Shown here: piece by piece, positions 14,335-58,921 of the stretch
Layout: each line of letters starts with the position of its first letter
Numbering within the stretch: the first letter of the stretch is position 1
Assembly: GCA_034422515.1 (NCBI GenBank)
Contig: DAOUJP010000020.1
Location: 65,590-129,589 of the forward strand
Direction of reading: 5' to 3'
Length of the DNA stretch: 64,000 nucleotides
Source: Chloroflexota bacterium
GTDB lineage: Bacteria; Chloroflexota; UBA11872; UBA12225; JAJDUF01
Notes under the pieces: generated by a model
Database searches by the model: none
The model's input: only the letters and a program-made list of their open reading frames with translations
Told to the model about the DNA's origin: nothing
Position numbers and translations under genes: made by a program

Positions 14335-14337
14335 GGC

Positions 14338-23210: not shown

Positions 23211-23215
23211 ATGAC

Positions 23216-26191: not shown

Positions 26192-26225
26192 TTACTGGAC
26201 GCACTTTGGAACACGGAGGGATGAC

Positions 26226-26483: not shown

Positions 26484-26839
26484 AGTTCCTGCTCGACGTA
26501 TGCGCGGCGTCCCACAGCATGCATACGACGCTAACGGACTTGGGCCACGATGTCCTATCAGCTTTGGAAAGTGCCCCACTAGCCACCGATGAAGAATTGC
26601 TCGCCCTCGCAACTGAGCAGCAGCGGGTGCTTATTACCGAGGACAAGGACTTTGGCGAGTTGGTATTTGTACGTCGCTTGCCGCACCCATGCATCATTCG
26701 CTTTGTCGGCATGTCGGTCGCGGAGAAAGTGGCCGCAATGGGTGATCTGATCGAGTACCATGCGGATGCAATGTATGAGCGGAGTATGATCGTGGTGACA
26801 CAGAGTCGGGTTCGGATACGTCGCGGAGCACGCGGTTAG
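26480..26839 (+). CDS. DUF5615 (PIN-like / Mut7-C RNase fold) toxin-like protein
   Basis: MKFLLDVCAA...VLITEDKDFGEL is characteristic of DUF5615, which pairs with DUF433 in type II TA-like cassettes. Confidence 0.55.
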   Translation: MKFLLDVCAASHSMHTTLTDLGHDVLSALESAPLATDEELLALATEQQRVLITEDKDFGELVFVRRLPHPCIIRFVGMSVAEKVAAMGDLIEYHADAMYERSMIVVTQSRVRIRRGARG

Positions 26840-26954
26840 GGAAGCGGCGGCTAGTGAACCCTTGGTAAGGCGGTCGTAGCGTCCGCGCGTTGGTGTACCG
26901 GCCGCCGTCAGGCTGAAGGACAACCAGAGGCTTCAGGCCGCTGAGGTAGGAGGC

Positions 26955-29753
26955 TTGCTCATGCAACCCTGGTACAGAGTGGTCACGCCCCGTCAGGAAG
27001 TCCGGGAGGGCCGGTCGTTCAGTCCGGACGAGTTTGCGATTGCCCTGGAGCAGGTGGTGGCCGGGACCGCGCCACCGGACTACCGCGACCCGGCGCAGTT
27101 CTTCTCGCGCACGTGCTTTACCCGCGCCTTGACGGAACATGCCGGCATGGTGCTCCGGCGCCTATCCGGCCGGACGGAGAACACGGCGCCGGTGCTGACG
27201 CTGATTACGCAGTTCGGCGGCGGGAAGACGCACACGCTCACGTCGCTCTACCACCTCGCCAAGGCGGGGCCGGCCGCCGCCAAGCTACCCGGTGTCGCGG
27301 CGCTGCTACGCGCGGCGGGTATTGCGGAGGCTCCCGCCGCCCGCGTTGGCGTCTTCGTCGGCAATGCCTGGGACCCCGCGCCAGGACGGGAGACACCCTG
27401 GATTGACCTGGCCCGGCAACTGGCCGGCGATGCCGGCGTCGCCGCGCTCGGCGCAACCGCCCGGACCACGCCGCCGGGAACCGAGGCGCTGGCGCGGGTA
27501 TTCGCCGCCGCGGAGGCGCCGGTGCTGCTGCTCTTCGATGAGGTCCTGAACTTCGTCAATCGCCATCGCCGCCTGGCAGATAGCTTCCATGCCTTTCTCC
27601 AGAACCTGACCGTCGCCGTCACCGGCGCGACCCGCGCGGCAGCGGTCATCAGCCTGCCGCGCAGCCAGGTCGAGATGACCGCGCGGGACCAGGAGTGGCA
27701 GGAGCGGATTACCAAGGTCGTGCGCCGCGTTGCCCGCGATCTCATCGCCAACGACGAGTCCGAGATCAGCGAGGTGGTGCGCCGGCGCCTGTTCGAGGAC
27801 CTCGGGAGCAAGCGCGTGCGCCGGAACGTGGCTCGGACCTATGCCGACTGGTGCTTCGAGCGCAGCGCTAGGCTGCCCGCCGAGTGGACGGCCGTGGACA
27901 CCGCGACCACGGACAAGCGGGCCAGAGACTTCCTCCGCAACCGATTCGAAGCCTGCTATCCCTTCCACCCGGCGACGCTGTCCGTCTTCCAGCGCAAGTG
28001 GCGCGCGCTCACCCAATTCCAACAGACTCGCGGGGCGCTGGCGATGCTGGCGCAATGGATTTCCTGGGCCTCGCGCGAGCAGTTCCAGCAGGCGCGGACG
28101 GAGCCGCTGATTACCCTGGGATCGGCGCCGCTGCATGTGCCCGAGTTCCGCGCCGTGGTGCTCGGCCAGCTGGGGGAGCAACGGCTTGACGTGGCCATTG
28201 ACGCCGATATCGCCGGGGAGCTGGCGCACGCCAAGGCCTTGGACGCGGACACCACGGGTGCGCTGCGCGACATCCACTGCCGCGTGGGCACGGCCATCCT
28301 GTTCGAGTCTTCCGGGGGGCAGGTGGACAGAGTGGCCAGCCTGCCGGAACTGCGGTTTGCGCTGGGGGAGGAGCCTGCTGTCGATACCACAACCGTTGAC
28401 AGCACCGCATTAGCGCTGGAGCGATCCGGGTTCTTTATCCGGAAGATTGGTACGGACGGCTATCGCATCCACCATCAAGCGACGCTACGCAAAGTCGTCA
28501 GCGACCGGCGCGCCTCGCTCGACGAGGAGACAGAGATCAAGCCGGCGGTCCGCAAGCTGGTTCAGGGTGAGTTCGCCCGCGACCCGACGATTCCGGTCGC
28601 CTATTTTCCGGAGGATGGGAGCGCGGTGCCGGATTCGCCGCGCCTGACGCTGGTCGTCGTGGACCCCGCTGAGGATTGGGACGGTGGGGGGCTCCTCCGC
28701 GCACGCATCGGCGAGTGGACCAAGGAGCGGGGCCGGTCGCCGCGGCTCTATCCTGGCTCGCTGGTCTGGTGTGCAAAGAAGCCGGGACGGGAGCTGCGGG
28801 AGCGGGTTGCGCTATGGCTCGCCTGGCAGCGCGTGTCGCGCGAGGTTGCAAGCGGCTCGCTCGGTACCGAGTTCGACCGCGGGGAGCGCACCGAAGTGCA
28901 GACCAGGGTCAGGGAGGCGGAGGCGGAGGCCAAAGAGGAGGTGTGGGCCAGTTATCGCTTCGTTGCGCTGCGGGAGGCCCAAGCGGCGGACGAACTGAAG
29001 GTCATAGACCTCGGCGCGGGCCACTCCAGCGCCAGCGGCACCCTCTGCGATCGGATTGTCACCGCCTTGAAGTCCGAGGCGCTGCTGAACGAGTCCGTCG
29101 GAGCCGGGTACATCGAGCGGCATTGGCCGCCGGCCTTTGAGGAGACGGGTGCCTGGCCACTCAGCGGCCTGCGGCGGAGCTTTCTCGACGGCTCGTTGAC
29201 CCGGCTGCTGGATGCGGATGCGGTGCTGCGCCGGAAGATCGTCGAATTCGTGGGTAGTGGGGACTTTGGGCTGGCCTCCGGGGACCGCGGCGACGGCCAA
29301 TATGCGCGGCTGGAGTACGCAGAACAGATTGGGGAGGAAGCGGTCACGTTTGACGACGACATCTTCCTGCTCACCAAGGCCAGGGCTCAACAGGTCCAGG
29401 CCCCTTCCGGCGGCCGGACGCCGCTGCAACCGGTACTCTCGATGGCCCCGTCCACCACCACTGAGCCGGACCCCGATTCTGGTTTGAGCGGCCTCTCGCC
29501 CACTCCCCATCCGCCATCAGGGGGAAAAACGGCAACGCTGCGGCTCACGGGTACTGTGCCGCTGGAACTCTGGAACGGGATCGGGAGCAGAGTGCTAGCT
29601 AGGCTCCGACCCGCAGGAAGCCGGAGCGTGGATGTAGATGTCGCGCTTGCCGTGACGGTTGACGCAGCGCAGGCCCATCACCAAACGATGGAACTGCGGC
29701 AGGCCCTCGCCGACCTGAGACTGGACGATCAGGTGCAGGTGGAAGCATCGTGA
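26955..29753 (+). CDS. DUF499-domain P-loop ATPase ('anti-phage-associated DUF499 protein')
   Basis: 932 aa. Walker A TQFGGGKTHTLTSL and Walker B LLLFDEV. The size and the N-terminal MxxWYRVVTPRQEVREG segment are typical of DUF499 proteins that co-occur with DUF1156 methyltransferases and DUF3883 helicases. Confidence 0.65.
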   Translation: MLMQPWYRVVTPRQEVREGRSFSPDEFAIALEQVVAGTAPPDYRDPAQFFSRTCFTRALTEHAGMVLRRLSGRTENTAPVLTLITQFGGGKTHTLTSLYHLAKAGPAAAKLPGVAALLRAAGIAEAPAARVGVFVGNAWDPAPGRETPWIDLARQLAGDAGVAALGATARTTPPGTEALARVFAAAEAPVLLLFDEVLNFVNRHRRLADSFHAFLQNLTVAVTGATRAAAVISLPRSQVEMTARDQEWQERITKVVRRVARDLIANDESEISEVVRRRLFEDLGSKRVRRNVARTYADWCFERSARLPAEWTAVDTATTDKRARDFLRNRFEACYPFHPATLSVFQRKWRALTQFQQTRGALAMLAQWISWASREQFQQARTEPLITLGSAPLHVPEFRAVVLGQLGEQRLDVAIDADIAGELAHAKALDADTTGALRDIHCRVGTAILFESSGGQVDRVASLPELRFALGEEPAVDTTTVDSTALALERSGFFIRKIGTDGYRIHHQATLRKVVSDRRASLDEETEIKPAVRKLVQGEFARDPTIPVAYFPEDGSAVPDSPRLTLVVVDPAEDWDGGGLLRARIGEWTKERGRSPRLYPGSLVWCAKKPGRELRERVALWLAWQRVSREVASGSLGTEFDRGERTEVQTRVREAEAEAKEEVWASYRFVALREAQAADELKVIDLGAGHSSASGTLCDRIVTALKSEALLNESVGAGYIERHWPPAFEETGAWPLSGLRRSFLDGSLTRLLDADAVLRRKIVEFVGSGDFGLASGDRGDGQYARLEYAEQIGEEAVTFDDDIFLLTKARAQQVQAPSGGRTPLQPVLSMAPSTTTEPDPDSGLSGLSPTPHPPSGGKTATLRLTGTVPLELWNGIGSRVLARLRPAGSRSVDVDVALAVTVDAAQAHHQTMELRQALADLRLDDQVQVEAS

Positions 29754-30081
29754 TCGCCAGCCCGAACCGCCACAACACGGCGATGCCTGGAGGGAATAGC
29801 CACGTGGTGGGTGTGGGCGGCGGTGGCTTGGCAAGATGCTGGAATCTGTCCGAGCACCAACCGTCCTTGACACCGAGGCTGTGCAGAAACTGAGGCTGGG
29901 CTGCCCCTGGTAGGTCGGGAGGGGCATTCTTCTGGGACGTCAGCGGGGTGGCTACGCTCGTAGTCGTTATCGCCGTGGGCATATAGTTCCAGGAAGAGTG
30001 GGGGATAGTGAACCGTTTCGGTGGAGTTGTCCCCACCGGGACGGGCTTAAACGCAAGAAGCCCGCATATAGGGGGAGGCAG

Positions 30082-30116
30082 GGGAAGCCATCGCTGGCAA
30101 TGCGATGGCTTCCCCT
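30082..30116. terminator. Bidirectional hairpin terminator (GGGGAAGCCATCGC-TGGCAA-TGCGATGGCTTCCCC) between the convergent DUF499 and helicase genes
   Basis: Perfect 14-bp inverted repeat immediately 3' of the minus-strand helicase stop (30127) and ~330 nt after the DUF499 stop. Confidence 0.5.
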
Positions 30117-30126
30117 ACTGGAGCGA

Positions 30127-32427
30127 TCAGCGTCCCGCGCTGACCAACTTGGCCTCCTGCTCTTGAGCCACCAGCCACTCGAAGAGCGGCAGGGTCGCGG
30201 GCGACTGTTTGCGCCGGCCCTTTGGCTTCGCGGGTTCCTGGGCCAGGAACTCTGCCCAGGAGAACAGTTCCTCTTGCTGCGGTGCCGGGTCGTCGTCGTG
30301 CCGACGTTTGCCGTTGACCGCTACCGCTGCTTCACCCTTGCCGTTCGCCCCGCTGGCGGGGGCCGCGACCACCATCGGCTCGCTTGCGACGGCCTGCCAG
30401 CCCTCGTCCACCAGCAACGTCTCGGCGTCGGCTGCGGCTGCCTGCGCTTGGGCGAACACCGCTGCCACCGCCTCGGTTGCCGCCGGCTCATCCCCACTGA
30501 CGATCTGGCGGGCCAGCGCCAGCAGCAGGTCGTCGCCATCGTCCCCGTAGGCGGCCAGCCCCTCCTCCGGCAGCTCCCCCTCCACCGCCAGCGAGCTTTG
30601 CAGCTTCTTCGCCACCAGTGTCAGGGCATCGGCCTGCAAGGTCTGCCGGTAGGCCAGGTAGACTACCTGCACCGGCCGGGTCTGCCCGATCCGCCAGGAC
30701 CGGCGCGAGGCCTGCCGCAGCGTGTAGACCGAGTAGTCCGTCTCGTACCAGCAGACGGTCGCAAAGTCGATCAGGTCCAAGCCCGTCTGCACCAGCCGGG
30801 GATGACACACCAGCACGTCCAGGCCTTCCTCGACCCGCTCCGCCACCCACGCTTCGCGGCGGTCAGGCTTCACCGCGTCCGCCTTCAACACGGCCACCCG
30901 GGCGCCCTGCCGGGTGAGCAGCGCGTGCAGCCGCCCGGTGATGTCCCGCGTGCCGGTATGGGTGACGTAGACCAGCACCCGGCGCCCGGCACGGCGCTCC
31001 GTTGCCACCAGGTCCAGCAAGGCCTGCTCCTTCGGATACACGCGCTCCGCGGACAAGGGCGGTACCTGGACCAGGGGGTGCTGCGTCTGCGGATCGAAGA
31101 CCGTCTCGCCGCGGGTGCAGCCGTCGGGGTAGGCCAGCAGGGTTTGCAGGTAGGCGCCCAGCAGCCGCTTGGACCCCTGGGACAGCGCAGCGGCCAGGGC
31201 CTTGCGCAGCGTGGTGAAGACGGCCTGGTAGGCGCTGCGCTGGGAATACCCCGTCTCATCCGGCGTGTCGTCGAGGTCCACCAGGCGTACCTGCTCGGTG
31301 TAGGGCGGTAAGCCACTGGCCACGTCGGCGAGGCGCAGGAAGACGGTGTGCCCGATGAGGTGGAACAGGGCGGCCGGGGCCAGGCCGGGCCGCTCCCGGA
31401 TCACCGTGCGGTAGCGCCGGCGCCGGCTGTGGCGGCCGTCCTCCAGCGGCTCATCGGCCGGCCGGCGGACGGTGTGCTCGACAAACCCGTAGCGGGCGAT
31501 CCAGCGGGACTCTTCGTGGTGCGCGAACTCCGCCCGCAGGGCCGGGGAGAACCGGTAGAGCAGGTGGAAGAGGGTGCTGGCGTAGCCACCGGCCAGGGTG
31601 CCGGTGAGCGCCAGGGAGGTCCCGCAGACGTCGGCCAGAATGCCGGCGGCGATGCCCTGGGCGGACCCGCGCCCCTTGTATTCATGCACCTCGTCGGCGA
31701 TCAGCAGGTCGAACCAACCCGGCAGCCGCTGCTTGATGTAGTCGGCGAGGGGATAGCGGCGGGGACCGCGGCGGTCGGCCTGCCAGAGGGCGGCGCCGCA
31801 CGCACTACAGCGGCGCTTGCGGCGGGCCAGCTCCGCGTCCGTCAGGGGCACGCCGTCGGAGGTGACTACCTGGGTGGCACAGACGGGGCACGTCGGGACG
31901 CGGAACGGTTCCCCCGTGGCCTCGTCCCGCAGCAGCCGCCCGTCGGCGGTGGCCCAGCGTTGAGTGACAGCGGGCTGCCAGCGGTAGGAGAGCTTGGCGC
32001 GCTCGCGGGACATGATGGCGAAGAGCGGGCCGGGGCCGCTGGCGTGGCGCAGCCGCTCCAGGTCCGTGATGGAGGTGACGATGGCGGCGCGGGCACCGGG
32101 GATGGTGGCTTCCACCTCCCGCTGCCACTTCCGGGTCAGGTGGGGTGGGACCAGCACCAGGATGCGCTGGCAGCCGGCCAGGTGGGCGGCGGCGGTGGCG
32201 ATGAAGGTCTTGCCGGTACCCATCTCGCCGACGACGGTGGTGCCGCGCTGGGTGGTGAGGGAGTGGGCGGTGCCCCGAATGGCGGTTTCCTGGGCCCCCA
32301 GCGGGGTGCGCAGCAACGGGGGCAGCGGCCGGTCGTCCCGGGCGGGCCGGTACTGGGGTGGGTAGGAGTCCACCACCCGCTGGGCGATGGCGTCCTTGTA
32401 GGTGTCGAGGAACGTGCTCAGGTTCAT
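30127..32427 (-). CDS. DEAD/DEAH (SF2, SNF2-like) helicase with an internal zinc-ribbon (phage/ICE replication module)
   Basis: Walker A GEMGTGKTF, DEVH box (LLIADEVHEYKG), a CPVC...CSAC zinc ribbon, and a helicase C-terminal domain (VCHPRLVQTGLDL). Confidence 0.6.
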   Translation of the reverse strand: MNLSTFLDTYKDAIAQRVVDSYPPQYRPARDDRPLPPLLRTPLGAQETAIRGTAHSLTTQRGTTVVGEMGTGKTFIATAAAHLAGCQRILVLVPPHLTRKWQREVEATIPGARAAIVTSITDLERLRHASGPGPLFAIMSRERAKLSYRWQPAVTQRWATADGRLLRDEATGEPFRVPTCPVCATQVVTSDGVPLTDAELARRKRRCSACGAALWQADRRGPRRYPLADYIKQRLPGWFDLLIADEVHEYKGRGSAQGIAAGILADVCGTSLALTGTLAGGYASTLFHLLYRFSPALRAEFAHHEESRWIARYGFVEHTVRRPADEPLEDGRHSRRRRYRTVIRERPGLAPAALFHLIGHTVFLRLADVASGLPPYTEQVRLVDLDDTPDETGYSQRSAYQAVFTTLRKALAAALSQGSKRLLGAYLQTLLAYPDGCTRGETVFDPQTQHPLVQVPPLSAERVYPKEQALLDLVATERRAGRRVLVYVTHTGTRDITGRLHALLTRQGARVAVLKADAVKPDRREAWVAERVEEGLDVLVCHPRLVQTGLDLIDFATVCWYETDYSVYTLRQASRRSWRIGQTRPVQVVYLAYRQTLQADALTLVAKKLQSSLAVEGELPEEGLAAYGDDGDDLLLALARQIVSGDEPAATEAVAAVFAQAQAAAADAETLLVDEGWQAVASEPMVVAAPASGANGKGEAAVAVNGKRRHDDDPAPQQEELFSWAEFLAQEPAKPKGRRKQSPATLPLFEWLVAQEQEAKLVSAGR

Positions 32428-32608
32428 GCTGCTCTCCTTTCTTCCCTTCGGTTGCGGTGAGTCGGTCGGGGGTCGGTCGTGTGCAGTGGGTGGGGGTAAC
32501 TTGGGGGAGGCGCCGGGGTAGGAAAAACGGACGCGGCCCCGCCGTTCCGAGGCCGGAACAACGAGGCCGCGTGGGATCGTAGGACGGTGCCGACTATGGG
32601 GGAACGCG

Positions 32609-33646
32609 CTAGGCGGCGATGTCGGTGATGGCGCCGGTGTGCAGGTCGAGGGCGACCACCGTGGTGTGCAGCCGCTCGCGGCGCACTTCCTGCTCGCGGG
32701 TGCGCTCCACCAGCACCAGCTCCTTGGCCGTGCGCCCCTTCACCAGCAGGCGCTGGCCGTTGGCCTCCAGGCAGAGGTTGTCCAAGAAGCCGGCGGCCAC
32801 CAGCATGGCCAGATGCCCGCGGCGCAGCGGCAGCAGCGGCCGGGGGCGCGGCGTCTCTGGCGGCCAGAGCGCGTCGGTGACGGTGGCGTGGGTCCACAGG
32901 CCGCTGCGCCGGGCCTCGGCCGCCGCGGCCAGCGGATCGACCGTGCGGGTGCTGAACAGCAGGTCGCCGGCCGGGGTGGCCGGCACGGTGTAGCGCGGCG
33001 TGGGCGCCGGCGTCAGTTCCCGTAGCGCCTCTGCCGCCCAGCGGTGGATCTGCCGCTCGGCGGCCGGGTCGGGCTGGGGCCGGGCGCGCCGGCAGCCGGT
33101 GAGCACGACCTGGTCGAAGGCCGCCCGCTCCGGACGGGGGAAGGCCCAGCAGGCCAGGCGCCGGTAGTGGGCGGCAAGGAAGCGAGCCGAGACCGGCAGG
33201 CGGCGCCGGGGGACGATGAAGACGAGCACGCCATGCTCGGCCAGGTAGCGGGTGCAGTGCCGCAGGAAGCGGTGCTCGGACCGCTGCTGTTCGCCGTCGT
33301 GGTCATAGGGGGGATTCAAGAGTAGCAGGCCGAAGGCGCGGTTGGCGATGGCGGCGGCGAAGAGGTCGGTGGCCAGGGTGTGATCCAGGCGGGTGGTGGC
33401 CTGGGCGGACCGCTCCTGGTGCAACTCGACGCCGTAGGTCTCCAGGGACAGGGCGCTGTACGGATGCAGGCGGCTGGCGAGGTGGGCCAGAGCGGCCCCG
33501 GCGCCGCAACAGGGGTCGAGCAGGCGGACGGTGCCGTGAGACCCGGCGGGGCGGCGGGCCGGTGGACGCAGCAGGGTGGCCAGCCGGTCGAGGACGCGCG
33601 GCGGGGTGGGATAGAACCCCCCTTTGGCTTGAGCGGCTAGACGCAT
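32609..33646 (-). CDS. N6-adenine DNA methyltransferase (NPPY class)
   Basis: SAM motif LDPCCGAGAAL and catalytic LLNPPYDHDG. Adjacent to the helicase in a phage-like arrangement. Confidence 0.6.
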   Translation of the reverse strand: MRLAAQAKGGFYPTPPRVLDRLATLLRPPARRPAGSHGTVRLLDPCCGAGAALAHLASRLHPYSALSLETYGVELHQERSAQATTRLDHTLATDLFAAAIANRAFGLLLLNPPYDHDGEQQRSEHRFLRHCTRYLAEHGVLVFIVPRRRLPVSARFLAAHYRRLACWAFPRPERAAFDQVVLTGCRRARPQPDPAAERQIHRWAAEALRELTPAPTPRYTVPATPAGDLLFSTRTVDPLAAAAEARRSGLWTHATVTDALWPPETPRPRPLLPLRRGHLAMLVAAGFLDNLCLEANGQRLLVKGRTAKELVLVERTREQEVRRERLHTTVVALDLHTGAITDIAA

Positions 33647-34332
33647 GGTGGGTCTCCTTTCTCCTCATTGGTGGTGTGACTGGCTGCCGGTGCCGCTGCC
33701 GGCTCGTCCAGGGTGAGCGTGCCGGCGGCGACGGCGTGGGCGAGGTCGGCCTGGAGGGCGGTGGCGTGGGGCCGGCAGTCGTAGGCGACGAGGCCGGCGG
33801 TTTGCAGCGGGGTGATCTCCTCCTGGGCCAGGCCGCGCTGCCAGAGCCAGGCGGCCCAGGAGTGGTGCAGCGGCAGGGGACTGCGCCGGTCCAGGAAGCG
33901 ATGGTGCAACTGGGGTGCGTCCGCTTCGTGTGGGGCCAGCAGCAGGAACTGCTCGCGCTCGGTGGCGTACTCGGCCAGCGTGGTGTAGACCAGCGCGTGC
34001 CAGCCGCCACAGACCGGCAGCCGCGTGAGCTTGGTAGTCCAGGTACCGACGGTGTGGGCGGGAATAACACAACGCTGGAAGCTGCCGGCGAGCGCGGTGC
34101 CCTCGGCGCCGGGGATGAGGTGGGCGACGGCGGGCGGCTGCTTGAGCAGGGCGGCCCAGATGGCCTTGAGGGCGGTTTGGGCGCCGACCAGGGAGAGGAA
34201 CCAGAGGCCGTCGGTGGCCGGGTCGCGGGCGAAGGCGTCGGCGGTGGCGGTGAAGCCGCCGGCCGTGACCGTGTACAGCGTGGCGGGGTCCAGGGTGGTC
34301 GGCGGGGTGGGGTGGGTGCTGGTCATGTCCAT
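33637..34332 (-). CDS. Hypothetical protein (231 aa)
   Basis: C-terminal part of the track ORF 33637..35013. MDMTSTHPT is the first Met after the upstream RadC gene ends. Not low-complexity, unlike the upstream read-through. Confidence 0.35.
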   Translation of the reverse strand: MDMTSTHPTPPTTLDPATLYTVTAGGFTATADAFARDPATDGLWFLSLVGAQTALKAIWAALLKQPPAVAHLIPGAEGTALAGSFQRCVIPAHTVGTWTTKLTRLPVCGGWHALVYTTLAEYATEREQFLLLAPHEADAPQLHHRFLDRRSPLPLHHSWAAWLWQRGLAQEEITPLQTAGLVAYDCRPHATALQADLAHAVAAGTLTLDEPAAAPAASHTTNEEKGDPPCV

Positions 34333-34376
34333 GCTCCTTTCGTTGTTGGGTGGGGTGCCGGACGGGCCCTCGGGTC

Positions 34377-34889
34377 CTAGCTGGGCAGCAGCCCCTGCTC
34401 CCGCAGGCTCACGGCGCGGTCGCCACCGATCACGATGTGGTCGAGCAGCGCGATGTCCAGGAGCTGCGCGGCGGCCATCAACTCCTTGGTGACGGCGACG
34501 TCCGCCGGGCTGGGCGTGGGATCCCCCGAGGGATGGTTGTGGACGACGATGAGGCCCGGGGCGGCCGCGACGATGGCCGGGCGGAACACCTCGGCGGCGC
34601 GGATGCGCGCCGCGTCGACGGTGCCCTGGTAGATCACCCGTTGACCCACCACGCGGTGCTTGGTGTTGAGCAGCAGCACGCGCAGCTGCTCCTGCACCAG
34701 TGGCGCCAACTCCGGCCCCACCAGTTGCTGCACGTCGGCGGGGCCGGAGATCGTGGGCCAGTCGGCGGGCGCACCAGGGGGCTGGGTGTCGACCTCGTAG
34801 CGCAGGGCCAGTTCGCCCAGCACCTGCAGGTTTTGGCGCAGGGCCGCCAGCAGGGAGGCGGTGGGTGGTTCGTAGGTGGTCGTGGTCAT
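34377..34889 (-). CDS. RadC-like JAB-domain protein
   Basis: The HNHPSGDPTPSPAD (JAMM-like HNHPSG) motif defines the RadC/DUF2466 family, common in phage and ICE modules. Confidence 0.6.
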   Translation of the reverse strand: MTTTTYEPPTASLLAALRQNLQVLGELALRYEVDTQPPGAPADWPTISGPADVQQLVGPELAPLVQEQLRVLLLNTKHRVVGQRVIYQGTVDAARIRAAEVFRPAIVAAAPGLIVVHNHPSGDPTPSPADVAVTKELMAAAQLLDIALLDHIVIGGDRAVSLREQGLLPS

Positions 34890-34996
34890 CGCACGCTCCT
34901 TTCAGACGGTGTGGGGGAAAACGAAAGCGGGGCCGCCCCCCGGCAGTGGGAGGCGGCCCCGCGTGGTGGGCAGCTACGACGATCCCGGGGCTGCGG

Positions 34997-35755
34997 TTAC
35001 GGTCCTGGCTCACTCCTTTCAGCCGGACTGACCGGCGCTAGTTTCTGAGCGGCGCCTTCGACCAAGGGCAGCAACTTGGCGGCGGGCACGGCGTCCAGGT
35101 CCTGGCCCAGCCGTTGGCGCACGGCCGTGCGGACCTGCGCGGCGGCGAAGCCCTGTTGGGCGCCCAGGGCCAGCAGCGTCTGGCGCAGTGGCGCGGCCCA
35201 GGTGTCGGTGCCGCCGTTCCCGCCATCACCGGCGAGGTCGTTGCCGAACTGCGCCCCCAGCGTGCGCAGCGCCCGCTTCAATGCGTCGGTCACGGCGCCC
35301 TTGTAGGCCGTCTCGTGGCCCTGGGCGCTCTCCTCGGCCACCACCCGGAAGCCCACGTCGGTGCGCGGGGGCATGCCCGGCACGTGCAGCCGGACGGTGG
35401 CGGTGTAGGCCGTGGTGTGCGCGACGGCGCCGGTCTGGGCGTCGCGGGTGGTGATGTCCCGCGGGGTGACCGCGCCGACGAGGTCATAGCCCCAGCCGCC
35501 GTAGCCGAGCAGGCGGTTGGCCTGCTGGATGGCGACCCGTCCGGGGAGATAGGGGAAGGTGTGCCCGGCGCGACCCTTCCGTTGCGCGACGAGGCTGGGG
35601 TCCAAGGGCGCGTCCAGTTGCTGGGCGACGGCGGGAGCCAGACCGGTCCACTGGCGGTCGGGCGCCAGATCACCGACGGGTTCCGTCCTCGCCAGGGGCG
35701 CGGATGCGGCGGGGATACCATTGCTGCGTTCGTTGCTGCGGGTGACGTTGGACAT
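34997..35755 (-). CDS. Rad52/Rad22-family single-strand annealing protein (phage recombinase)
   Basis: FPYLPGRVAIQQANRLLGYGGWGYDL...RDITTRD...AYKGAVTDALKRALRTLGAQFGNDL matches the Rad52_Rad22 N-terminal annealing domain. Confidence 0.6.
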   Translation of the reverse strand: MSNVTRSNERSNGIPAASAPLARTEPVGDLAPDRQWTGLAPAVAQQLDAPLDPSLVAQRKGRAGHTFPYLPGRVAIQQANRLLGYGGWGYDLVGAVTPRDITTRDAQTGAVAHTTAYTATVRLHVPGMPPRTDVGFRVVAEESAQGHETAYKGAVTDALKRALRTLGAQFGNDLAGDGGNGGTDTWAAPLRQTLLALGAQQGFAAAQVRTAVRQRLGQDLDAVPAAKLLPLVEGAAQKLAPVSPAERSEPGP

Positions 35756-35993
35756 CGGATACTCCTTCCTTCCTTGCTGCGTTGTCGGTTCTCGGTGGAC
35801 AGCGGCGTGCTGGGGCGCGCGGCAGTACGGAGGGACAGCGGGCCGTCAACCGGGGGGGCCGGGCGACGGAGGGTAGGAACCGGCTGGGGATAGCCGGTGC
35901 GCGCGGCGCTGGGACGCGGGAGCGTCAGTCGTGCGCAGCGGTGCCACTGAGGGAAGCGGCCCGGTGGCAGCGTGGCCAGCGGGGGATCGCCGG

Positions 35994-37052
35994 CTACCGC
36001 GGCCGTTGTGCGGTGGCCAGCCGGCGCCGGAACACCGCGCGACCATCCGGCCGGGTGGCCAGGTCGGCCACATCGCTGACCCCTGGCGGGAGGGTGATGG
36101 TGGTAGCCCGCTGCCCCAGCAGTTCGGTGAGCCGCGCCGCGGCTGCCCGACCCGCGGCGTCGGCGTCGAAGGCCAGCACCACGCGGGGGCAGGTGCGCAG
36201 GGCGGCGGCGACCCGGTCCAGGCCCTGGGTGCCCAGCACCGCAGCCGCCGGCAGGCCCCATTCCACCAGCGTGAGCCAGTCGAACAGCCCCTCGGTCAGC
36301 ACCACCCGCGGCGGCGCCGCACCCAGGCGTCCCAGGCCCAGCAGTGGCTTCGGGCCGGGCAGCGTCTGGAAGCGGGGGATGCGTTCCGGCGCGATGGCCC
36401 GCCCCGCCAGCCACCGCACCTGGCGGTCACGCACTGCCGGCACCACCACCATGCCGGCGAACCGCTCGGCACCCCGCCCGACGAACAGTCCCGATGCCCG
36501 CTGCTGCGCCGCGTCGAAGCCGGCAGCAGTCAGGGCGCCACGCAGCCCGCGCCCTGGGGCATAGCCCAGCCCCAGGCGCCTAGCCGTTGCGGGGCTGATG
36601 CCGCGGCTCGCCAGGTATGCCCGCCCTTGGGGGTACCGCCACAGCGCCCGGTGATAGCAGCGGGCCGCCGCCGTCAGCAGCGCCGGGTCGCGCGGGGGCC
36701 GGGCGGTGGCGTGGGGCCGACTGCGGGTGGCTAGGGCCGGGGGCCGCGCGTGTGCTGGTGTGGCCAGGCCCGCCCCGCCGTCGAGGCGCCGGATGGCTTG
36801 GGGCAGGGTCAGGCCTTCCACGCGCTGTACGAAGTCCAGCACGTCGCCGCTGGCGCCACAGCCGAAGCAGTGGAAGCGGGCGGTGTCGCCGTACACCGTG
36901 AAGCTGCCCTCGGTCTCGTCGTGGAAGGGACACCGGCCCTGGCGGACGCGGCCTTGGCCCCGCAGTTGCACGCCGGCCGCCAGGACCACGTCGGCCAGCG
37001 GGTGCCGCTGCTTGAGCGCGGCGAGGTCTACGAACTGCTGGGCTACCACCAT
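35994..37052 (-). CDS. DnaG-like DNA primase (CHC2 zinc finger + Toprim)
   Basis: CPFHDETEGSFTVY...FHCFGCGASGD zinc finger, and Toprim (VVLTEGLFDWL...VVLAFDADAAG). Confidence 0.6.
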   Translation of the reverse strand: MVVAQQFVDLAALKQRHPLADVVLAAGVQLRGQGRVRQGRCPFHDETEGSFTVYGDTARFHCFGCGASGDVLDFVQRVEGLTLPQAIRRLDGGAGLATPAHARPPALATRSRPHATARPPRDPALLTAAARCYHRALWRYPQGRAYLASRGISPATARRLGLGYAPGRGLRGALTAAGFDAAQQRASGLFVGRGAERFAGMVVVPAVRDRQVRWLAGRAIAPERIPRFQTLPGPKPLLGLGRLGAAPPRVVLTEGLFDWLTLVEWGLPAAAVLGTQGLDRVAAALRTCPRVVLAFDADAAGRAAAARLTELLGQRATTITLPPGVSDVADLATRPDGRAVFRRRLATAQRPR

Positions 37053-37816
37053 GCTGCACCTCCTATGTATTGCTCTGCCGTAGGCATCGAAACCTCCTCA
37101 TCGCTGTGGTCAGGGCAGTGCGTCGCGACCGACGGCACTGGGGCCAGGCTGTCCGGGCATGACCTCCTTTCGGGTGGTCCGTGTGGGCAGCGGGCGCACG
37201 GGGACTGCTGACGGGAGCGGCTGGTGCGGGACGCGCGCTACCCCCGGTCGGATGCCTTGCCGTGGGACGCGGTGCGAGGGGGAACCCCGGCCAACGCACG
37301 AGCGGGGTGGCTGCCGTGCGACCAAGGTCTGTGGTGGGGGAATGGAGACGGCGTGCCACGATGCGGGACCGCGCTGGGAGCACGCTGGGAGAGCGACACC
37401 GAGCGGCGCAGTGCGCGCAACGACCAGCAGGTGCTGGTGTCGCTGCCGCGTTGACGAGCGGGCGGCGGGCGGCGGCGGCAACGGGTGGTCAGCGCGCGGG
37501 ACGCCCGCCAACCGTGGTGTCCCAGGAGCGCCGTGCCGGTTGCACGTCACCCGCTGGACTGGGCTGCTGGCGATGGGATTCCTCCCTGCGTCACAGCAGC
37601 GGTGCCCTCATGGGGACCGTCGGGAGAGCAAGGCTCGATCCCGTGCGGTCTCGCCCGGGTCTAGGGCTGGACCCCCAGGTTTCTAAGGCGGGAAATCCTG
37701 GCAAAGCCTGACAATACGCTCAGTATTCCGGCTCCGGCCCACCGGTGACAAGGGGTTGTGGCCTCCCCGCGCCAAGTGCTTGCCCGCCTGGTGCTCCCAG
37801 GCGGCTGTCATGCGGC

Positions 37817-38629
37817 TCACCCCAAGCCCAGCGTGAGCACCCGGCGCAGGCGGCGTCGCCACGCCGCCCGGCGGCGCTCGCCGCGCACCCGCGCCAAAGT
37901 CCGCTGGCGCCAGGCCACCTCGTGCCGCCGGGTGAGGGCATCCCAGGGATACGTCGCCGGCGGCAGCGTCAGGCGGTGGGTTTCGATCAGGGCCAACTCC
38001 AACTCCCGCAGCCGCGCCTCCGCGCGCACGGCGCTCAGGTGGTCGGCCGCCCCGGCCCGCGCCTCCCGTGCCTGCCGCCACGCGATGATGAGTGGGGCCG
38101 CTGCGCCAAATGCCGCCGCTTCCCCCGGCACGGCGTCGGCAGTGACGACTGGGGGAGCGACCTGCTGGGCATCCCTCGTTGTCCGCCCCAGCGGTGTCGC
38201 CCCGCCCCCGGCGCCCTGGCAGGACTCCAGCGCCGCTAACCGTTGCTCCAGGGCCTGGGTGCGCTGCGCGGCTGCGTCCCGCAGTTGTTGGCCCTGCGCG
38301 CTGATGGCCGCCAGCAGCTCCTCCCGTTGGCGCCGCAGCGCCGCCTCTAGGTGCTGCTCCCACTGGCGACGGGCCTCCGCCACGCTTTCGGTCGGAGCGT
38401 CGGTGACCTTCCCCGCCAGCAGGTGCCGCTCCAGGGCGTCCTGCATCCGCCGCGACAACCGGCCGCTGTTCACCGCTGCGGCCACCGTCTTGCGGTGGAC
38501 CCCCAACACGGCGGCGGCTCCCGTCCGCCCCTCTTGCCGCACCAGGTCGTGCAGCAGCACCAGCAGCCGCAGTTCCTGCACGCTCTCCAGACTGGGGGTC
38601 TGCGTCTCCATGCTGCGCTCCTCGCTCAT
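37817..38629 (-). CDS. HTH-domain regulatory protein with a C-terminal coiled coil
   Basis: HTH (GRTGAAAVLGVHRKTVAAAVN) followed by heptad-rich QxxLxALE repeats. Preferred over the overlapping Gly/Ala/Arg-rich 375-aa ORF. Confidence 0.4.
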   Translation of the reverse strand: MSEERSMETQTPSLESVQELRLLVLLHDLVRQEGRTGAAAVLGVHRKTVAAAVNSGRLSRRMQDALERHLLAGKVTDAPTESVAEARRQWEQHLEAALRRQREELLAAISAQGQQLRDAAAQRTQALEQRLAALESCQGAGGGATPLGRTTRDAQQVAPPVVTADAVPGEAAAFGAAAPLIIAWRQAREARAGAADHLSAVRAEARLRELELALIETHRLTLPPATYPWDALTRRHEVAWRQRTLARVRGERRRAAWRRRLRRVLTLGLG

Positions 38630-39025
38630 CTACGCACCGGCCGCGATCCTGTAGGGCCGCGCTTCCCTGGGGCACTTGGCCACCATACTCCGGCTGCGAC
38701 ATGGCCACCGTTGGCCGGTCCCAGGGAAGCACGTGGCGCCTGCCTTGGAACCAGCCCTCGCACCCAGGTGCTTGCTGGAATGGAGCCATCCCACCTGCCG
38801 GTGCGCCCATTTTCTATCTGGTAGCGGGGGGCTCTGACCCACCACGCGGCCAAGCGGTCCCCAGTACGGATTCCTGTACACGTCCATTACAGCGGTAATA
38901 CCCCCGCGCTGACCAGGCCTTTTAAGGGGGGCCGCGCGTGCCCTCCCTCACAAGGCATTCCGCCGGGCACGCTCGGTCGGCATCCTAGTGAGCGGGCACC
39001 GGGCAGCCGGCCGGCCGGTGCTGCC

Positions 39026-39085: not shown

Positions 39086-39310
39086 ATGAAACGGACGACA
39101 AAGACCATCACCTTCTCGCTACCCCCGGCGATGGCGGCCCAGGTGCGGGCCGTGATGCGGGCGGAAGGCCGCACCATGAGCGACCTGGTGCGCGAAGCCC
39201 TGCGTCTCTACATGGAGGAGCGGGAATGGCGCCAGACCGTCCGCTACGAGCGGCTCCAAGCCCGTCGCGCCGCCGAGCAAGCTGACCCAGGAGGCAACCC
39301 CGATGCGTAA
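39086..39310 (+). CDS. Ribbon-helix-helix (CopG/ParD-like) DNA-binding protein
   Basis: 74 aa; KTITFSLPPAMAAQVRAVMRAEGRTMSDLVREALRLYMEE is a canonical RHH. Its stop overlaps the integrase start. Confidence 0.6.
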   Translation: MKRTTKTITFSLPPAMAAQVRAVMRAEGRTMSDLVREALRLYMEEREWRQTVRYERLQARRAAEQADPGGNPDA

Positions 39311-40889
39311 CCAACCGGACCCCACCCCGGCGGCCCTGTATGCCCGCGTGTCCAGCGACCGCCAGGACGTGGACCTCTCCGTGGCGGCCCAACTGCGGGC
39401 CCTGCGGAACTACGCTGCCCAGCATGGCTATGTCGTGGTCCGCGAATACGTGGACGAAGCGGAGAGCGGGCGCGTCGCCGACCGGCCGGAGTTCCGCAAG
39501 CTGCTCGAGGCTGGTGGCCGTCCCCAAGCGCCCTTCCAGGTCATTCTCGTCTGGAAGTTCTCCCGTTTCACCCGCAAGCGTGAGCATGCGGTCGCTTTCA
39601 AGGCCATGCTGCGGCACCGGGGCATCAAGGTGGTCTCCATCACGGAGCACGCCGACGACTCGCCCACCGGGCGGCTGATGGAAGCCATCATCGAGAGCGT
39701 GGACGAGTTCTACTCCGAGAACCTGGCCCAGGAGGTCACGCGCGGGATGCGCGAGGCCGCGGCCCGGGGGTATTTCCTGGGGCCGCGGCCGCCGTTCGGC
39801 TATCGGCGGGTCAAGGTCCGCGACGGGGCGAAGGAACGGCCGACCTTGGTGGTGGACCCGGCCACTGCGCCAGTGGTGCGGGAGCTGTATGCGCAGTCGT
39901 TGCGCGGCCACGGCTTGAAGGAGCTGTGCCGGGACTTGAACGACCGCGGCATCACTAATCGCGGGAAGCGCTGGCGGCGGAATGCGCTGCACTACCTGCT
40001 GACCAACGAAGCCTATACCGGCACCGCCGTCTGGGGGCGGACCACCAAGGGCACCCAGGCGCCGGACCCGGTGCGGGTCCCGGACGCCTGGCCGGCGCTG
40101 GTGACGCGGCAGCTGTTCGAGCAGGTGCAGCAGGCGTTGAAGGAGCGCGCGCCGGCGATGCAGCGGCCCGGCCGGGTGGGCAGCACGTTCCTGTTGAGCG
40201 GGCTGCTGCGCTGCGGGGTGTGTGGCAAGGCTTACGTCGGCCAGGGGGCGAAGAGCGGCCGGTTCGCCTACTATGTCTGTGGCACGTTGCAGCGGGAGGG
40301 TGCCGGCACTTGCACCGCCCGCTACCTGAACGCGCCGAAGGTCGAGGCCTTCGTGGTAGACACGATCAAGGGGCGCATCCTGAACGACGCGACGATCACC
40401 GAGTTGGTGCTGCTGGTGGCGGAGGAGATTGACGCGGTGGCCGGCGAGGTGGCCGGCCGGCTGGAGACGATTGCAGCGGAACTAGCAGACGTCAGCAGCC
40501 GGCTGGAGCGGCTCTACGAGGCCTTGGAGACCAGTGCGTTGACCCTGGAAGCGCTGTCGCCGCGCATCCTGGCGCTGCGGCACCGGCAGGATCAGTTGGG
40601 CGCGGCGCGGGAGGCGGCCGAGCACCAGTTGGCCCAGCGGAAGGTGGAGCTGCCCGGCACGACGGAGATCAAGGGATACGTGGCGGACTTCCGGGCGTTG
40701 TTGCAGCGGGGCACGTTCCCGGAGCGGAAGGCGCTGCTGCGCAACTTCGTGCAGGGGATCGAGGTGGTGGACGACGCGGCGACGCTGACGTACACGGTGC
40801 CCATGCCGGCGGACGGCATGACCAGGGAGGGGGTGCCGGTTCTTGATTTTGTCCAGTCCGGCCTATCGCTACGGGACCGGAGCACATGA
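39303..40889 (+). CDS. Large serine recombinase (integrase)
   Basis: N-terminal resolvase catalytic domain (ALYARVSSDRQDVDLSVAAQ... with the nucleophilic Ser), a recombinase domain, a Cys-rich zinc ribbon (CGVCGK...YVCG) and a C-terminal coiled coil, 528 aa. Confidence 0.8.
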   Translation: MRNQPDPTPAALYARVSSDRQDVDLSVAAQLRALRNYAAQHGYVVVREYVDEAESGRVADRPEFRKLLEAGGRPQAPFQVILVWKFSRFTRKREHAVAFKAMLRHRGIKVVSITEHADDSPTGRLMEAIIESVDEFYSENLAQEVTRGMREAAARGYFLGPRPPFGYRRVKVRDGAKERPTLVVDPATAPVVRELYAQSLRGHGLKELCRDLNDRGITNRGKRWRRNALHYLLTNEAYTGTAVWGRTTKGTQAPDPVRVPDAWPALVTRQLFEQVQQALKERAPAMQRPGRVGSTFLLSGLLRCGVCGKAYVGQGAKSGRFAYYVCGTLQREGAGTCTARYLNAPKVEAFVVDTIKGRILNDATITELVLLVAEEIDAVAGEVAGRLETIAAELADVSSRLERLYEALETSALTLEALSPRILALRHRQDQLGAAREAAEHQLAQRKVELPGTTEIKGYVADFRALLQRGTFPERKALLRNFVQGIEVVDDAATLTYTVPMPADGMTREGVPVLDFVQSGLSLRDRST

Positions 40890-40951
40890 GTAGAAAAAGT
40901 GCTCCGGCATGTTATATGTGCCATCAAGCGGCCTGCCCTGAACATCCGTGA

Positions 40952-41080
40952 GGTTCTGAGACCTCAGCTCAATATCTGTCCGGAGCCGAGCAAGTAGGCG
41001 CGACGTTCATCACTGCCGATAGACGCCTTTACCAGCGCATTGAGCAACTGACCTATGTGCGCTGGCTGGGCGAAGTGTGA
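40952..41080 (+). pseudogene. 3'-terminal remnant (43 codons) of a PIN-domain (VapC-like) gene at the element junction
   Basis: In-frame GSETSAQYLSGAEQVGATFITADRRLYQRIEQLTYVRWLGEV* resembles a PIN C-terminus (xTLITADrrL). It has no start codon and an upstream in-frame stop at 40949, and begins 62 nt after the integrase stop. Confidence 0.4.
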
Positions 41081-41107
41081 CTTGCCGGCGGCGCCCGGCA
41101 AGCTGAC

Positions 41108-43930
41108 ATGAAGCGGCTTATCACGTATGCTATCGGCCAGAAAGTGCAGACAAGGCGTGCGATGAACGTGAATGTCACTGTTGATGGTCGGCAGGTCGCG
41201 GTGGCAGAGACGGCCACCGTCCTCGACGCGGTGTGCGCGGCCGGCATCGAAATACCGCATCTCTGCAAAGATGCCGACCAGCCGCCTATCGGCGCGTGCC
41301 GGACCTGCTTAGTCGAGGTGGAGGGCGGACGCGGCTTTCCGGCCTCGTGCCATACACCAGTGCTTGACGAGATGATTGTCCGCACACGCGGCGCGGCGCT
41401 CGAACGCATCCGCAACGGTGTCCTGGCGCTTACGCGGGCGATGCAGCCGGCAGATGTGGCTGCGCCGGCCGGCGGAGTGGGGAAGGAATTCGGCGATACA
41501 CTTGATCTCTTCCGGCTGGCCGAGCCGCTCGACGGCCTGACGCCCAAGCCCCGGCCGGACGTGGACGACAGCAACCCCATCTTCCAGTTGAACCACGAAG
41601 CCTGCATCATGTGCGGGCGCTGCACCACGGCCTGCGAGGATATTCAGCACATCGGCGCTATCTCCATCGCCGGCACGGCCGAGCAGACTCACATTGCCCC
41701 TTTCATGGATCAAGAACTGATTGAATCGATCTGCACGACGTGCGGTCAGTGCGTCTCGGTCTGTCCCACCGGGGCGCTCCACCCCAAGCCTGTGCTGGGC
41801 CACGATCCGGTAGTGGCCCGCGAGGTCAAGAGCGTGTGCGCCTACTGCGGCGTCGGGTGCGGTATCACGATGCAGGTGGACGAGCATGACCGCCTCATCA
41901 ATGTGCTCGACGATCCCGCCAACCGGTCCAGCCAGGGGATGCTGTGTGTGAAAGGGCGTTTCGGTCTCACCTTCATCCAACACGAGGACCGCCTGACCAC
42001 GCCGCTGATCCGCAAGAACGGTGTACTCACCGAGGCGTCCTGGGATGAGGCACTGGACTTGGTAGCGGAGAAATTTGCCGAGTACCGCGGCTCGTTCGGA
42101 TCGCTGGCCTCGGCCAAGGCCACCAACGAAGACGGCTACGTGCAGCAGAAGCTCGTTCGCCTCCTGATGGGCACCAATAACATTGACCACTGCACGCGGC
42201 TCTGCCACTCCCCCTCGGTCGAGGCGATGATCGCGCAGCTCGGCAGCGGGGCAACGAGCAATTCTTATGCCGACTACCGCAACGCCGGCTGCCTGATGGT
42301 CGTCGGCAGTGATACCGGTTCCAACCATCCGGTGATTGCCTCGCAGCTCCGCCAGGCCATTGACGAGCGCGGCGCCAAGTTGATTGTGATCAATCCGAAG
42401 CGCATTGAACTCTGTAACTACACCGACCTCTGGCTGCGGCCCAACCCCGGCACCGACGTGGCGCTATTCAACGGCCTCGCGCGCGCGGTGCTCGACGCGG
42501 GACTGGCCGACGAGGAGTTCATCCGCGAGCGGACGGAGGGTTTCGCGGCGCTGGAAGCGACCTTAGCGGACTACAGTCCCGCGGTGGTCGAGCAGATTAC
42601 CGGTGTTCCCGCCGCGGACATCCGCCGCGCGGCGGCATTGTTCGCGCAACCGCCGTTTGGCGGCTCCTGCCTGATCTGGGGCATGGGCATCACCCAGCAT
42701 ACGAATGGCACCGACAATGCCTCGGCGTTGCTCAACCTGGCCCTCGTCACCGGCCAGATCGGGAAGCCGGCCACCGGCGTCTCGCCGCTCCGCGGTCAGA
42801 ACAACGTCCAGGGCTGCGGCGACGCGGGCTGCATTCCCGATAAGCTGCCCGGCTATCAGAACCTGACCGCCGACACGCGGGAGCCATTCGAGCGGCGCTG
42901 GGCAGGGCCGCTGCCCAGCGAGGAAGGTCTCGTCGTCACCGACATGATGGCGGCCGCAGCGCAGGGTGCCCTCGCCTGTATGTACATCACCGGCGAGAAC
43001 CCGTTACTCAGCGAGCCGTACCTGGCACACGCGCAGCAGGCACTGTCGAACCTGAAATTTCTCGTGGTGCAGGACATCTTTCCCCACGAGACCTCCGAGT
43101 TGGCCGACGTGGTGCTCCCGGCCACTTCCTTTGCCGAGAAAGAAGGCACGTTTACCAACAGCGAACGACGGGTACAGCGGGTACGGCCAGCCATTTCGCC
43201 CGTCGGCGAGAGCCGGTCCGACTGGTGGATCGTCTGCGAGATCGGCAAACGACTGGCGCGGCGGCTGGGCAGGGATCCGGGGCAGTTCGAGTACACCGGT
43301 CCGGCAGCCATCTTCGACGAACTGGCTGCGCTCACCCCGTTCATGGGCGGTTTGTCACATGAGCGGTTGGACCGCGAGGGCGGTATCCAATGGCCCTGCC
43401 CAACACCGGATCATCCCGGCACGCCGCAGCTTTACACGGACTCCTTCCCGGTAGGCAAAGCCAAGTTCGTGCCCGTGATCCAAGGCCCGCCGGCGGCCGA
43501 GCTACCCTCGCGGCGGTTTCCGCTCATCCTCAACACCGGGCGCGTTCTTTACCACTGGCACGGTGGGACCATCACTCGCCGGGCCGAGGGACTACTAGCG
43601 CGGGCGCCCTACCTGGAGGTCGCCATCAATCCCGATGATGCCCAAGCCGCCGGCCTGAGCGACGGCGATGACGTGCGCGTCGTCTCGCGGCGCGGCGAGC
43701 TAGACGGCAAGGCGCTGGTCAGCGAGACCGTGCAGCGCGGTGAGGTCTTTGTTCCATTTGTCAAGCTGCAAGAATCGGCGGCCAACTTCCTCACCAACGC
43801 CGTTTTCGATCCGAAGTCGAAGATTCCCGAATACAAGGTCTGCGCCGTGCGGCTCGAAAACCCCGCGGCCCCCGCGCGCTGGCGTCGCGGCCGCCGGCGC
43901 ATGGGCCTGCCGGTCGGCACGCGCCGATAA
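41108..43930 (+). CDS. Formate dehydrogenase alpha subunit / molybdopterin oxidoreductase with N-terminal 2Fe-2S and 4Fe-4S domains (FdhA/FdsA-like)
   Basis: 2Fe-2S ferredoxin (CRTCLVEV), 4Fe-4S (CIMCGRCTTAC; CTTCGQCVSVCP) and MopB (CAYCGVGCG) domains. The start may be at 41162 (MNVNV). Confidence 0.75.
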   Translation: MKRLITYAIGQKVQTRRAMNVNVTVDGRQVAVAETATVLDAVCAAGIEIPHLCKDADQPPIGACRTCLVEVEGGRGFPASCHTPVLDEMIVRTRGAALERIRNGVLALTRAMQPADVAAPAGGVGKEFGDTLDLFRLAEPLDGLTPKPRPDVDDSNPIFQLNHEACIMCGRCTTACEDIQHIGAISIAGTAEQTHIAPFMDQELIESICTTCGQCVSVCPTGALHPKPVLGHDPVVAREVKSVCAYCGVGCGITMQVDEHDRLINVLDDPANRSSQGMLCVKGRFGLTFIQHEDRLTTPLIRKNGVLTEASWDEALDLVAEKFAEYRGSFGSLASAKATNEDGYVQQKLVRLLMGTNNIDHCTRLCHSPSVEAMIAQLGSGATSNSYADYRNAGCLMVVGSDTGSNHPVIASQLRQAIDERGAKLIVINPKRIELCNYTDLWLRPNPGTDVALFNGLARAVLDAGLADEEFIRERTEGFAALEATLADYSPAVVEQITGVPAADIRRAAALFAQPPFGGSCLIWGMGITQHTNGTDNASALLNLALVTGQIGKPATGVSPLRGQNNVQGCGDAGCIPDKLPGYQNLTADTREPFERRWAGPLPSEEGLVVTDMMAAAAQGALACMYITGENPLLSEPYLAHAQQALSNLKFLVVQDIFPHETSELADVVLPATSFAEKEGTFTNSERRVQRVRPAISPVGESRSDWWIVCEIGKRLARRLGRDPGQFEYTGPAAIFDELAALTPFMGGLSHERLDREGGIQWPCPTPDHPGTPQLYTDSFPVGKAKFVPVIQGPPAAELPSRRFPLILNTGRVLYHWHGGTITRRAEGLLARAPYLEVAINPDDAQAAGLSDGDDVRVVSRRGELDGKALVSETVQRGEVFVPFVKLQESAANFLTNAVFDPKSKIPEYKVCAVRLENPAAPARWRRGRRRMGLPVGTRR

Positions 43931-58838: not shown

Positions 58839-58921
58839 GGAGGGATGGCTGAGCGGCCGAAAGCGGCGGTCTTGAAAACCGTTGGTCGAAAGACCCGGGG
58901 GTTCGAATCCCTCTCCCTCCG
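58839..58921 (+). tRNA. tRNA-Ser (anticodon TGA), long variable arm
   Basis: Acceptor GGAGGGA/TCCCTCC, anticodon loop CTTGAAA, extra arm GGTCGAAAGACC, T-loop GGTTCGAATCC. The ends are approximate. Confidence 0.7.

Follow-up and report, generated by a model that had tools for sequence, protein, structure and literature searches.

A serine-integrase defence island beside a PIN toxin remnant in a Chloroflexota bacterium probably inserted into DNA that had already replaced most of the toxin gene

When the gene for a large serine recombinase lies next to the stump of a toxin gene, did the integrase split the toxin? The question is raised by a 64-kb stretch of DNA, here called the window, which is part of a 1.02-Mb metagenome scaffold from a Chloroflexota bacterium (ENA ERZ23495174, NGUY21-1 scaffold_4). 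The initial annotation described a serine-integrase element with a partnerless VapB-type antitoxin gene at one edge and a C-terminal PIN remnant at the other, and proposed that the recombinase had integrated into a vapBC-like locus and split the toxin gene. All the evidence used here is comparative and drawn from metagenome assemblies; both island junctions in the window are present in two assemblies made from one sample. L004 (OZ241866.1), the closest complete genome, has a DNA identity of about 87%.

The remnant lies in an open frame lacking a start codon, which begins at 40952, 62 nt past the integrase stop, and runs to a TGA at 41078-41080 (42 sense codons and the stop). By itself the frame had no Pfam match, and its 42 residues gave no match in a word-index protein search. 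Exhaustive searching with phmmer, across 1.84 billion representatives, matched it to P0001, a protein of 149 aa (E = 3.5e-11, 76% identity, remnant residues 5-42 aligned to P0001 residues 112-149), and to P0003 (E = 4e-4). P0001 and P0003 are both PF01850 PIN proteins, placing the remnant in that family by homology to their C-termini. The match is far beyond chance and the frame evidently holds a PIN toxin C-terminus, as had been claimed. The intact PIN-family homologues that this claim implied were also found, a search with P0001 returning a tight family of 149-aa PIN proteins.

How much of the frame is toxin gene was determined by comparison with other loci. Across 40985-41080, 87 of 96 nt are identical to the intact PIN gene in the related locus L087. 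Only 11 of 18 are identical across 40967-40984, a stretch common instead to L159, a contig described below. We considered and rejected the reading of 40967-40984 as diverged PIN sequence (AQYLSGAE against ALYLTAAE), given the poor agreement with L087 and its presence in L159. Because these 18 nt are shared with L159, the genuine PIN (VapC-like) 3' remnant on the plus strand covers only about 40985-41080, or some 31 codons and the stop. It represents only residues ~118-149 of P0001. A functional toxin has a complete PIN domain with four acidic active-site residues; the remnant keeps one, the fourth (the aspartate of TAD).

The rest of the toxin gene is missing. When P0001 was compared with the 64-kb window by tblastn, the sole match was at 40967-41077 (78% over 37 aa, E = 1e-15); all remaining matches had E > 0.1 and were noise, and the ~112 N-terminal PIN residues are absent from the window. 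The PIN N-terminus had been expected near 8.0 kb. It was not found there, in the DNA just after vapB (8018-8400), nor near the GC boundary at 29.8-30.1 kb, nor anywhere else in the 64 kb.

At the other edge of the element is the vapB-like antitoxin ORF (7637-8017, plus strand, 126 aa), which scores 24.4 bits against PF09957, above the cut-off of 23.4. In the related loci L084-L089 the genes follow one another without interruption in the order Ldh_2, EamA, 116-aa vapB, PIN (149 aa), FdhA, HisKA and response regulator. The orthologues of the window VapB in these loci directly precede the PIN gene, and the stop of the 116-aa antitoxin gene overlaps the start of the 149-aa PIN gene. Since intact vapB-PIN pairs occupy the same EamA...FdhA synteny in L084-L089, the VapB at 7637-8017 is the antitoxin cognate to the toxin that survives as a stump at ~41 kb. 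The partnership between antitoxin and remnant suggested in the initial annotation is thus upheld, and an element with a serine integrase does lie between the two. To its right, the conserved backbone resumes with an FdhA-like molybdopterin oxidoreductase gene (41108-43930, plus strand), identified by Pfam and by synteny with L004, L084-L087 and L156.

The intact loci align to the window in two blocks. By blastn, L087 1511-1851 corresponds to window 7603-7943 (95%) and L087 2227-5196 to window 40973-43927 (93%); L084 and L085 give the same two-block match at 88-90%. The left homology break falls inside vapB, at 7943/7944, 74 nt ahead of its stop. Up to 7943, the end of codon 102, the vapB DNA is ancestral and 90-95% identical to vapB of the intact loci; beyond this point it is unrelated, and the last 24 codons (7944-8017) come from a segment that we call X. 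A search with the window VapB found the same odd tail in P0031 and P0032, and VapB proteins with the replaced tail are present in three lineages.

Other relatives have changed at this site in their own ways. In L156 (5683-6201; GCA_022824545.1), compared with L084 10007-10359, a clean 353-bp deletion, a separate event, has removed PIN codons 3-120. It spares vapB and the last ~29 PIN codons, and its right endpoint is at most ~5 bp from the X/PIN junction of the window (~40985-40988). The toxin was thus lost at least twice independently, with the antitoxin and a near-identical 3' stump retained. In L004 (9204-9745, between EamA and FdhA) a RelE/ParE-like toxin and an antitoxin, encoded on the minus strand, replace vapBC; with this different module at the site, L004 was rejected as a reference for attB. 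L087 has an extra 80-aa gene at the locus. The EamA/FdhA intergenic site is a hotspot of toxin-antitoxin turnover.

The empty site is preserved in L159, a TARA metagenome scaffold, and in L160, both of them contigs that derive from other samples and carry P0032. L159 1673-3248 matches window 6564-8138 at 89% and L159 3248-3373 matches window 40862-40987 at 91%; in both contigs the equivalent of window 8138 is joined directly to that of 40862, with no element between. When the window up to 8139 was joined to the window from 40865 onwards, the product aligned colinearly to L159 at ~90%, and the sole gap was of 1 nt at the joint, which reads GATCCTATCG in L159 (one extra C) and GATCTATCG in the reconstruction. 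Alignment with an island-free relative, the check that had been set beforehand, therefore provides attB from a relative that is ~10% diverged, the extra C leaving a 1-nt uncertainty for the ancestral site of this genome. L159 and L160 stop ~460 bp past X and differ there from the window.

The DNA surrounding the empty site is segment X, ~320 bp in total, made up in the window of a left part at 7944-8139 and a right part at 40865-40987, both read on the plus strand. The left part is pre-element DNA that is not vapBC; it is colinear with L159 and L160 at 89% and has no similarity to the intact loci L084-L089. The right part is target DNA that is neither element nor PIN, being 91% identical to L159 3248-3373 and L160 687-812, with no match to the intact vapBC loci ahead of ~40967/40985. 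A third contig, L155, has sequence in common with X only up to 8116, followed by different DNA. Since X is present in L159 and L160 where the element is absent, and up to 8116 in L155, it is older than the insertion.

The best explanation, and one we consider very likely, is that X replaced the 3' end of vapB and most of the PIN gene, and that the element then integrated into X. On this reading, the ancestral locus was EamA, vapB (116 aa), PIN toxin (149 aa) and FdhA. In one sublineage, the last 14 codons of vapB and codons 1-~117 of PIN (~375 bp) were replaced by the ~320-bp X, the outcome being a new-tailed VapB, a small unit running from promoter to terminator, and a PIN stump of 31 codons. 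The 32.7-kb element afterwards integrated conservatively into an attB of ~50 bp in X, with no target duplication or deletion. Both steps are shown by the comparison of loci. The ancestral locus has lost ~375 bp, which a serine integrase, whose insertion is conservative, could not bring about.

A scan of X showed what it brought to the locus. In addition to the new VapB tail of 24 residues, it supplies a promoter-like site at 8014-8042 (TTGACA-17-CATACT) and, ~45 nt on, a strong terminator-like 9-bp hairpin with a T-run (8088-8119); attB sits immediately 3' of this hairpin. Two further hairpins, at 40877-40907 and 40949-40966, are in the right part. The stretch 8014-8119 has the appearance of a ~70-nt small-RNA-like unit without an Rfam match, and X as a whole likewise has none. 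The loop of the terminator-like hairpin is AAAA in the window versus TTTT in L155 (10368-10480) and L159 (~3125-3230), with the stem kept. Past the X terminator, L155 continues with unrelated DNA (10481-11081) closing in an ORF start, MNLLTVFSRFPDQQACIA, which we take to resemble IS1595-type transposases. Upstream of its vapB, L155 also has a 76%-identical copy (9857-9944) of the region of the window spanning the PIN stop and FdhA leader (41061-41147).

X could itself be what remains of a previous mobile element, which deleted DNA as it inserted into vapBC and then decayed, and whose landing site the present element reused. We regard this as possible but doubtful. In its favour, X has no relation to vapBC, brings promoter-like and terminator-like signals of its own and lies in a site of repeated turnover (the RelE/ParE-like pair of L004, the different DNA with the IS1595-like ORF start of L155, the 80-aa gene of L087), and tail-to-tail integrase pairs in some relatives of the element suggest that one element may stack against the end of another. 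X showed neither a recombinase remnant nor a terminal repeat, however, and among the fetched loci it has no match beyond L155, L159 and L160. Such an origin for X would refine the first step of the replacement-then-integration explanation, with which it is compatible, and is no full alternative to it.

The ends of the element were mapped within X. The 20-mer GGTTCTTGATTTTGTCCAGT at 40838-40857, in the 3' end of the integrase gene, has one other copy in the 64 kb at three or fewer mismatches. This second copy, at 8145-8164, is inverted and has 1 mismatch, where 0 copies are expected by chance. Compared with 8141-8164, the attR arm (in 40838-40890) forms an inverted repeat with 21 of 24 matches. 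We could thus map attL to 8113-8164 (B arm ~8113-8137, crossover CTA 8138-8140, P' arm 8141-8164), with the sequence ...CACGAT-CTA-CCAAACTGGAC..., and attR to 40838-40890 (P arm 40838-40862, CTA 40863-40865, B' arm ~40866-40890), with the sequence ...GTCCAGTCCGGC-CTA-TCGCTACGG.... Only CTA is common to the two. The central dinucleotide is probably CT, which is favoured over TA because TA is palindromic. The reconstructed attP of 52 bp, GGTTCTTGATTTTGTCCAGTCCGGCCTACCAAACTGGACAAAATCCAGAACC, is an imperfect palindrome in which 21 of 26 pairs match (42 of 52 positions are self-complementary); its junction reads ...GTCCAGTCCGGCCTACCAAACTGGAC... and that of the restored attB ...CGCACGATCTATCGCTACGG.... 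The range of 8020-8800 predicted for attL contains the real site. That predicted for attR, 40890-40951, was 30-90 bp too far to the right, the actual crossover being inside the integrase ORF.

These positions bear on the original proposal, that the recombinase entered an intact PIN gene and split it, taken together with later deletions of the N-terminal part. The PIN stump and its cognate vapB do flank the island, and just ~100 bp separate the integrase stop from the breakpoint at 40967-40985. Yet attL and attR, each of them intact, are found 100-200 bp inward of the vapBC breakpoints, X is uninterrupted and free of the element in L159 and L160, and the replaced VapB tail is common to lineages with different downstream DNA. 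Nor does any relative of the integrase adjoin a PIN gene, this PIN family being found near integrase relatives in 0 of 65 loci. Joining the flanks of the element restores X, not a PIN ORF. We consider a split by the integrase highly improbable; what stands of the proposal is that the locus is a decayed vapBC, while the target itself was the unrelated X. What is left of PIN is a dead remnant, whose nearness to the integrase is coincidental in mechanism.

A donor that already had the island could also have passed it to this lineage, with homologous recombination in the island's flanks (vapB/X and FdhA) and no placement by the integrase here. The flanks are 87-95% conserved across relatives, which would make such an exchange feasible, and activity of the integrase in this genome is only presumed. 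The junctions nevertheless show site-specific recombination to be the original event, with inverted P and P' half-sites in attR and attL, CTA in common, no target duplication and a precise empty attB in a relative; homologous recombination would alter only where that event took place. We think transfer of this kind quite unlikely, and continue with integration of the element into X.

The element so defined spans ~8140-40864 (~32,725 bp) and is absent from L159 and L160. Its left ~22 kb is mosaic, with a GC content of ~60-65%, and its right ~9 kb, encoded on the minus strand, has ~72%, the step between 8000-30000 and 30000-39000 being sharp. With a GC step within a single att pair, the element is a mosaic of differently sourced modules. 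The possibility that only the high-GC block at 30-41 kb is the element was rejected, given the P' arm at 8145-8164 and an empty site that removes the whole 32.7 kb.

Defence genes occupy 10270-29753. The left cargo comprises a sigma-70-r4-like gene, a 1133-aa fusion of M78 peptidase, UvrD (GajB-like) and PDDEXK, BilA, BilB and BilD of the ubiquitin-like Bil system (PADLOC family matches with E down to 6e-170), HmaA (SNF2), HmaB (DUF1156 methylase) and HmaC (DUF499 ATPase; PADLOC matches with E down to 4e-175), and an SLFN/AlbA_2 protein of the architecture SLFN/AlbA_2-HATPase_c_4. BilC and GajA were not identified in the cargo. On the minus strand of the right part are genes for a helicase, a mad2/DUF6094-like methyltransferase, RadC, Rad52 and a primase, followed by the RHH and integrase genes. 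No capsid, phage structural or conjugation genes were seen in the element. With this gene content it is best classed as an integrative genomic (defence) island that includes a replication/recombination module.

The integrase gene (39303-40889, plus strand) encodes a large serine recombinase of 528 aa that combines Resolvase (PF00239, E = 4.9e-33), Recombinase (PF07508, E = 1.8e-23) and zinc ribbon (Zn_ribbon_recom, PF13408, E = 3.3e-16) domains in one protein of the ~500-aa class. An RHH (CopG-type) gene (39086-39310, plus strand; PF01402, E = 2.4e-7) overlaps its start. The RHH-integrase pairing recurs in L119, L129, L138 and L144, and the RHH protein may be a regulator or directionality factor. 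With the integrase and both att arms intact, the element is presumably still excisable. The attP junction of a circular form was not found in viral contigs, and a viral-contig search with the integrase also gave no match.

The element itself encodes integrase residues 1-520, codon 521 (CTA, 40863-40865) is the crossover, and target DNA supplies residues 522-528 together with the stop. The P arm of attP thus consists of the last element-encoded codons of the integrase itself (VLDFVQSG). Nine relatives (66-76% identity) have near-invariant DNA through ...GTTCTCGATTTTGTCCAGTCCGGCCCACCA and then diverge fully, the conserved DNA ending at ...GGCC(C)ACCA, at about residue 520 of the same VLDFVQSG stretch. 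As the crossover is codon 521, the relatives align only to residue 520. The reconstructed attP regains the family motif GGCC-N-ACCA, with GGCC from attR and ACCA from attL, 32.7 kb apart in the window. No inverted P' copy marking a left end was found within 10 kb in the loci of the relatives, and there is no integrase pseudogene behind the P' arm in the window.

More distant relatives place the boundary at the same point. In those at 50-55% identity, the same codon is adjoined or overlapped by an opposite-strand tRNA gene, with an overlap of 4 nt in L102, L103, L105 and L134. As tRNA genes abut this codon, the boundary between element and host in the family is at the extreme 3' end of the integrase ORF. 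Complete tRNA genes (Ala, Gln, Glu, Arg or Met) are found at the integrase 3' end in L102-L110 and L134; such an association with tRNA 3' ends is more familiar from tyrosine integrases. The window has two neighbouring tRNA-Ser genes (TGA and GCT anticodons, 58839-59050), which are unrelated to the element. L091 (5653-8771) encodes two paralogous large serine recombinases (~55% identical) tail to tail, and such pairs are also present in L093, L094, L097, L113, L120 and L137. The paired ORFs overlap at an att-like imperfect palindrome, GTCCAGTCAGGCCCACCAGACTTGAC, so that each tail is the antisense of the other's C-terminus.

A crossover inside the ORF changes the end of the protein. In the integrated state the 528-aa integrase ends in LSLRDRST, its final 8 codons and stop (40863-40889) being derived from the target. 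In the circular form the frame would read into the P' side (8140-8203), giving a predicted protein of 541 aa ending in LPNWTKSRTFMLRFKLTGQNR. By analogy with the integration-dependent immunity switches of some mycobacteriophages, this change of C-terminal tail might tune the stability or directionality of the integrase, an idea that we consider unlikely.

Large serine recombinase integrases of the phiC31, Bxb1, TP901-1 and A118 type are found in phages and integrative elements. Like them, the enzyme described here has the Resolvase-Recombinase-zinc ribbon architecture and short att sites, with an imperfectly palindromic attP of ~50 bp, conservative insertion and 2-3 bp common to attP and attB. 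Unlike them, its P arm and crossover are inside the integrase ORF (codon 521 of 528), with the last 7-8 residues changing on integration, and its host is an uncultured Chloroflexota bacterium whose element shows no phage structural or conjugation genes. The element thus appears to be a large-serine-recombinase integrative element of the ordinary kind. It is mildly unusual in that the crossover lies inside the integrase ORF, its family associates with tRNA 3' ends, and integrase pairs occur tail to tail.

The gene-interrupting serine-integrase elements skin/sigK, SPbeta/spsM and A118/comK come under the term 'regulated gene integrity' (PMC7192596). As in those cases, a serine-integrase element adjoins a truncated host gene. 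Regulated gene integrity requires both halves of the gene to flank the element and to be rejoined on excision; the window lacks the 5' three quarters of the PIN gene, and the element is not of this gene-splitting type. Compared with VapBC type II modules (PF01850, PF09957), which in the relatives are overlapping vapB-PIN pairs, the module of the window is dead: its toxin retains 31 codons and a single acidic residue out of four, and its antitoxin has a replaced tail. In its Bil, Hma and Gabija-like helicase cargo, a likeness drawn from PADLOC family matches, the island resembles defence islands on other integrative elements.

This locus illustrates that reading an integrase beside a gene stump as a split gene, plausible from the sequence by itself, can fail in its mechanism even though each observation is right. 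Base-level attL, attR, attB and attP are now mapped for a serine integrase from uncultured Chloroflexota, and the sites could serve as a part for genome engineering. Current understanding of these systems is unchanged by the case, which documents a toxin-antitoxin locus as a hotspot.
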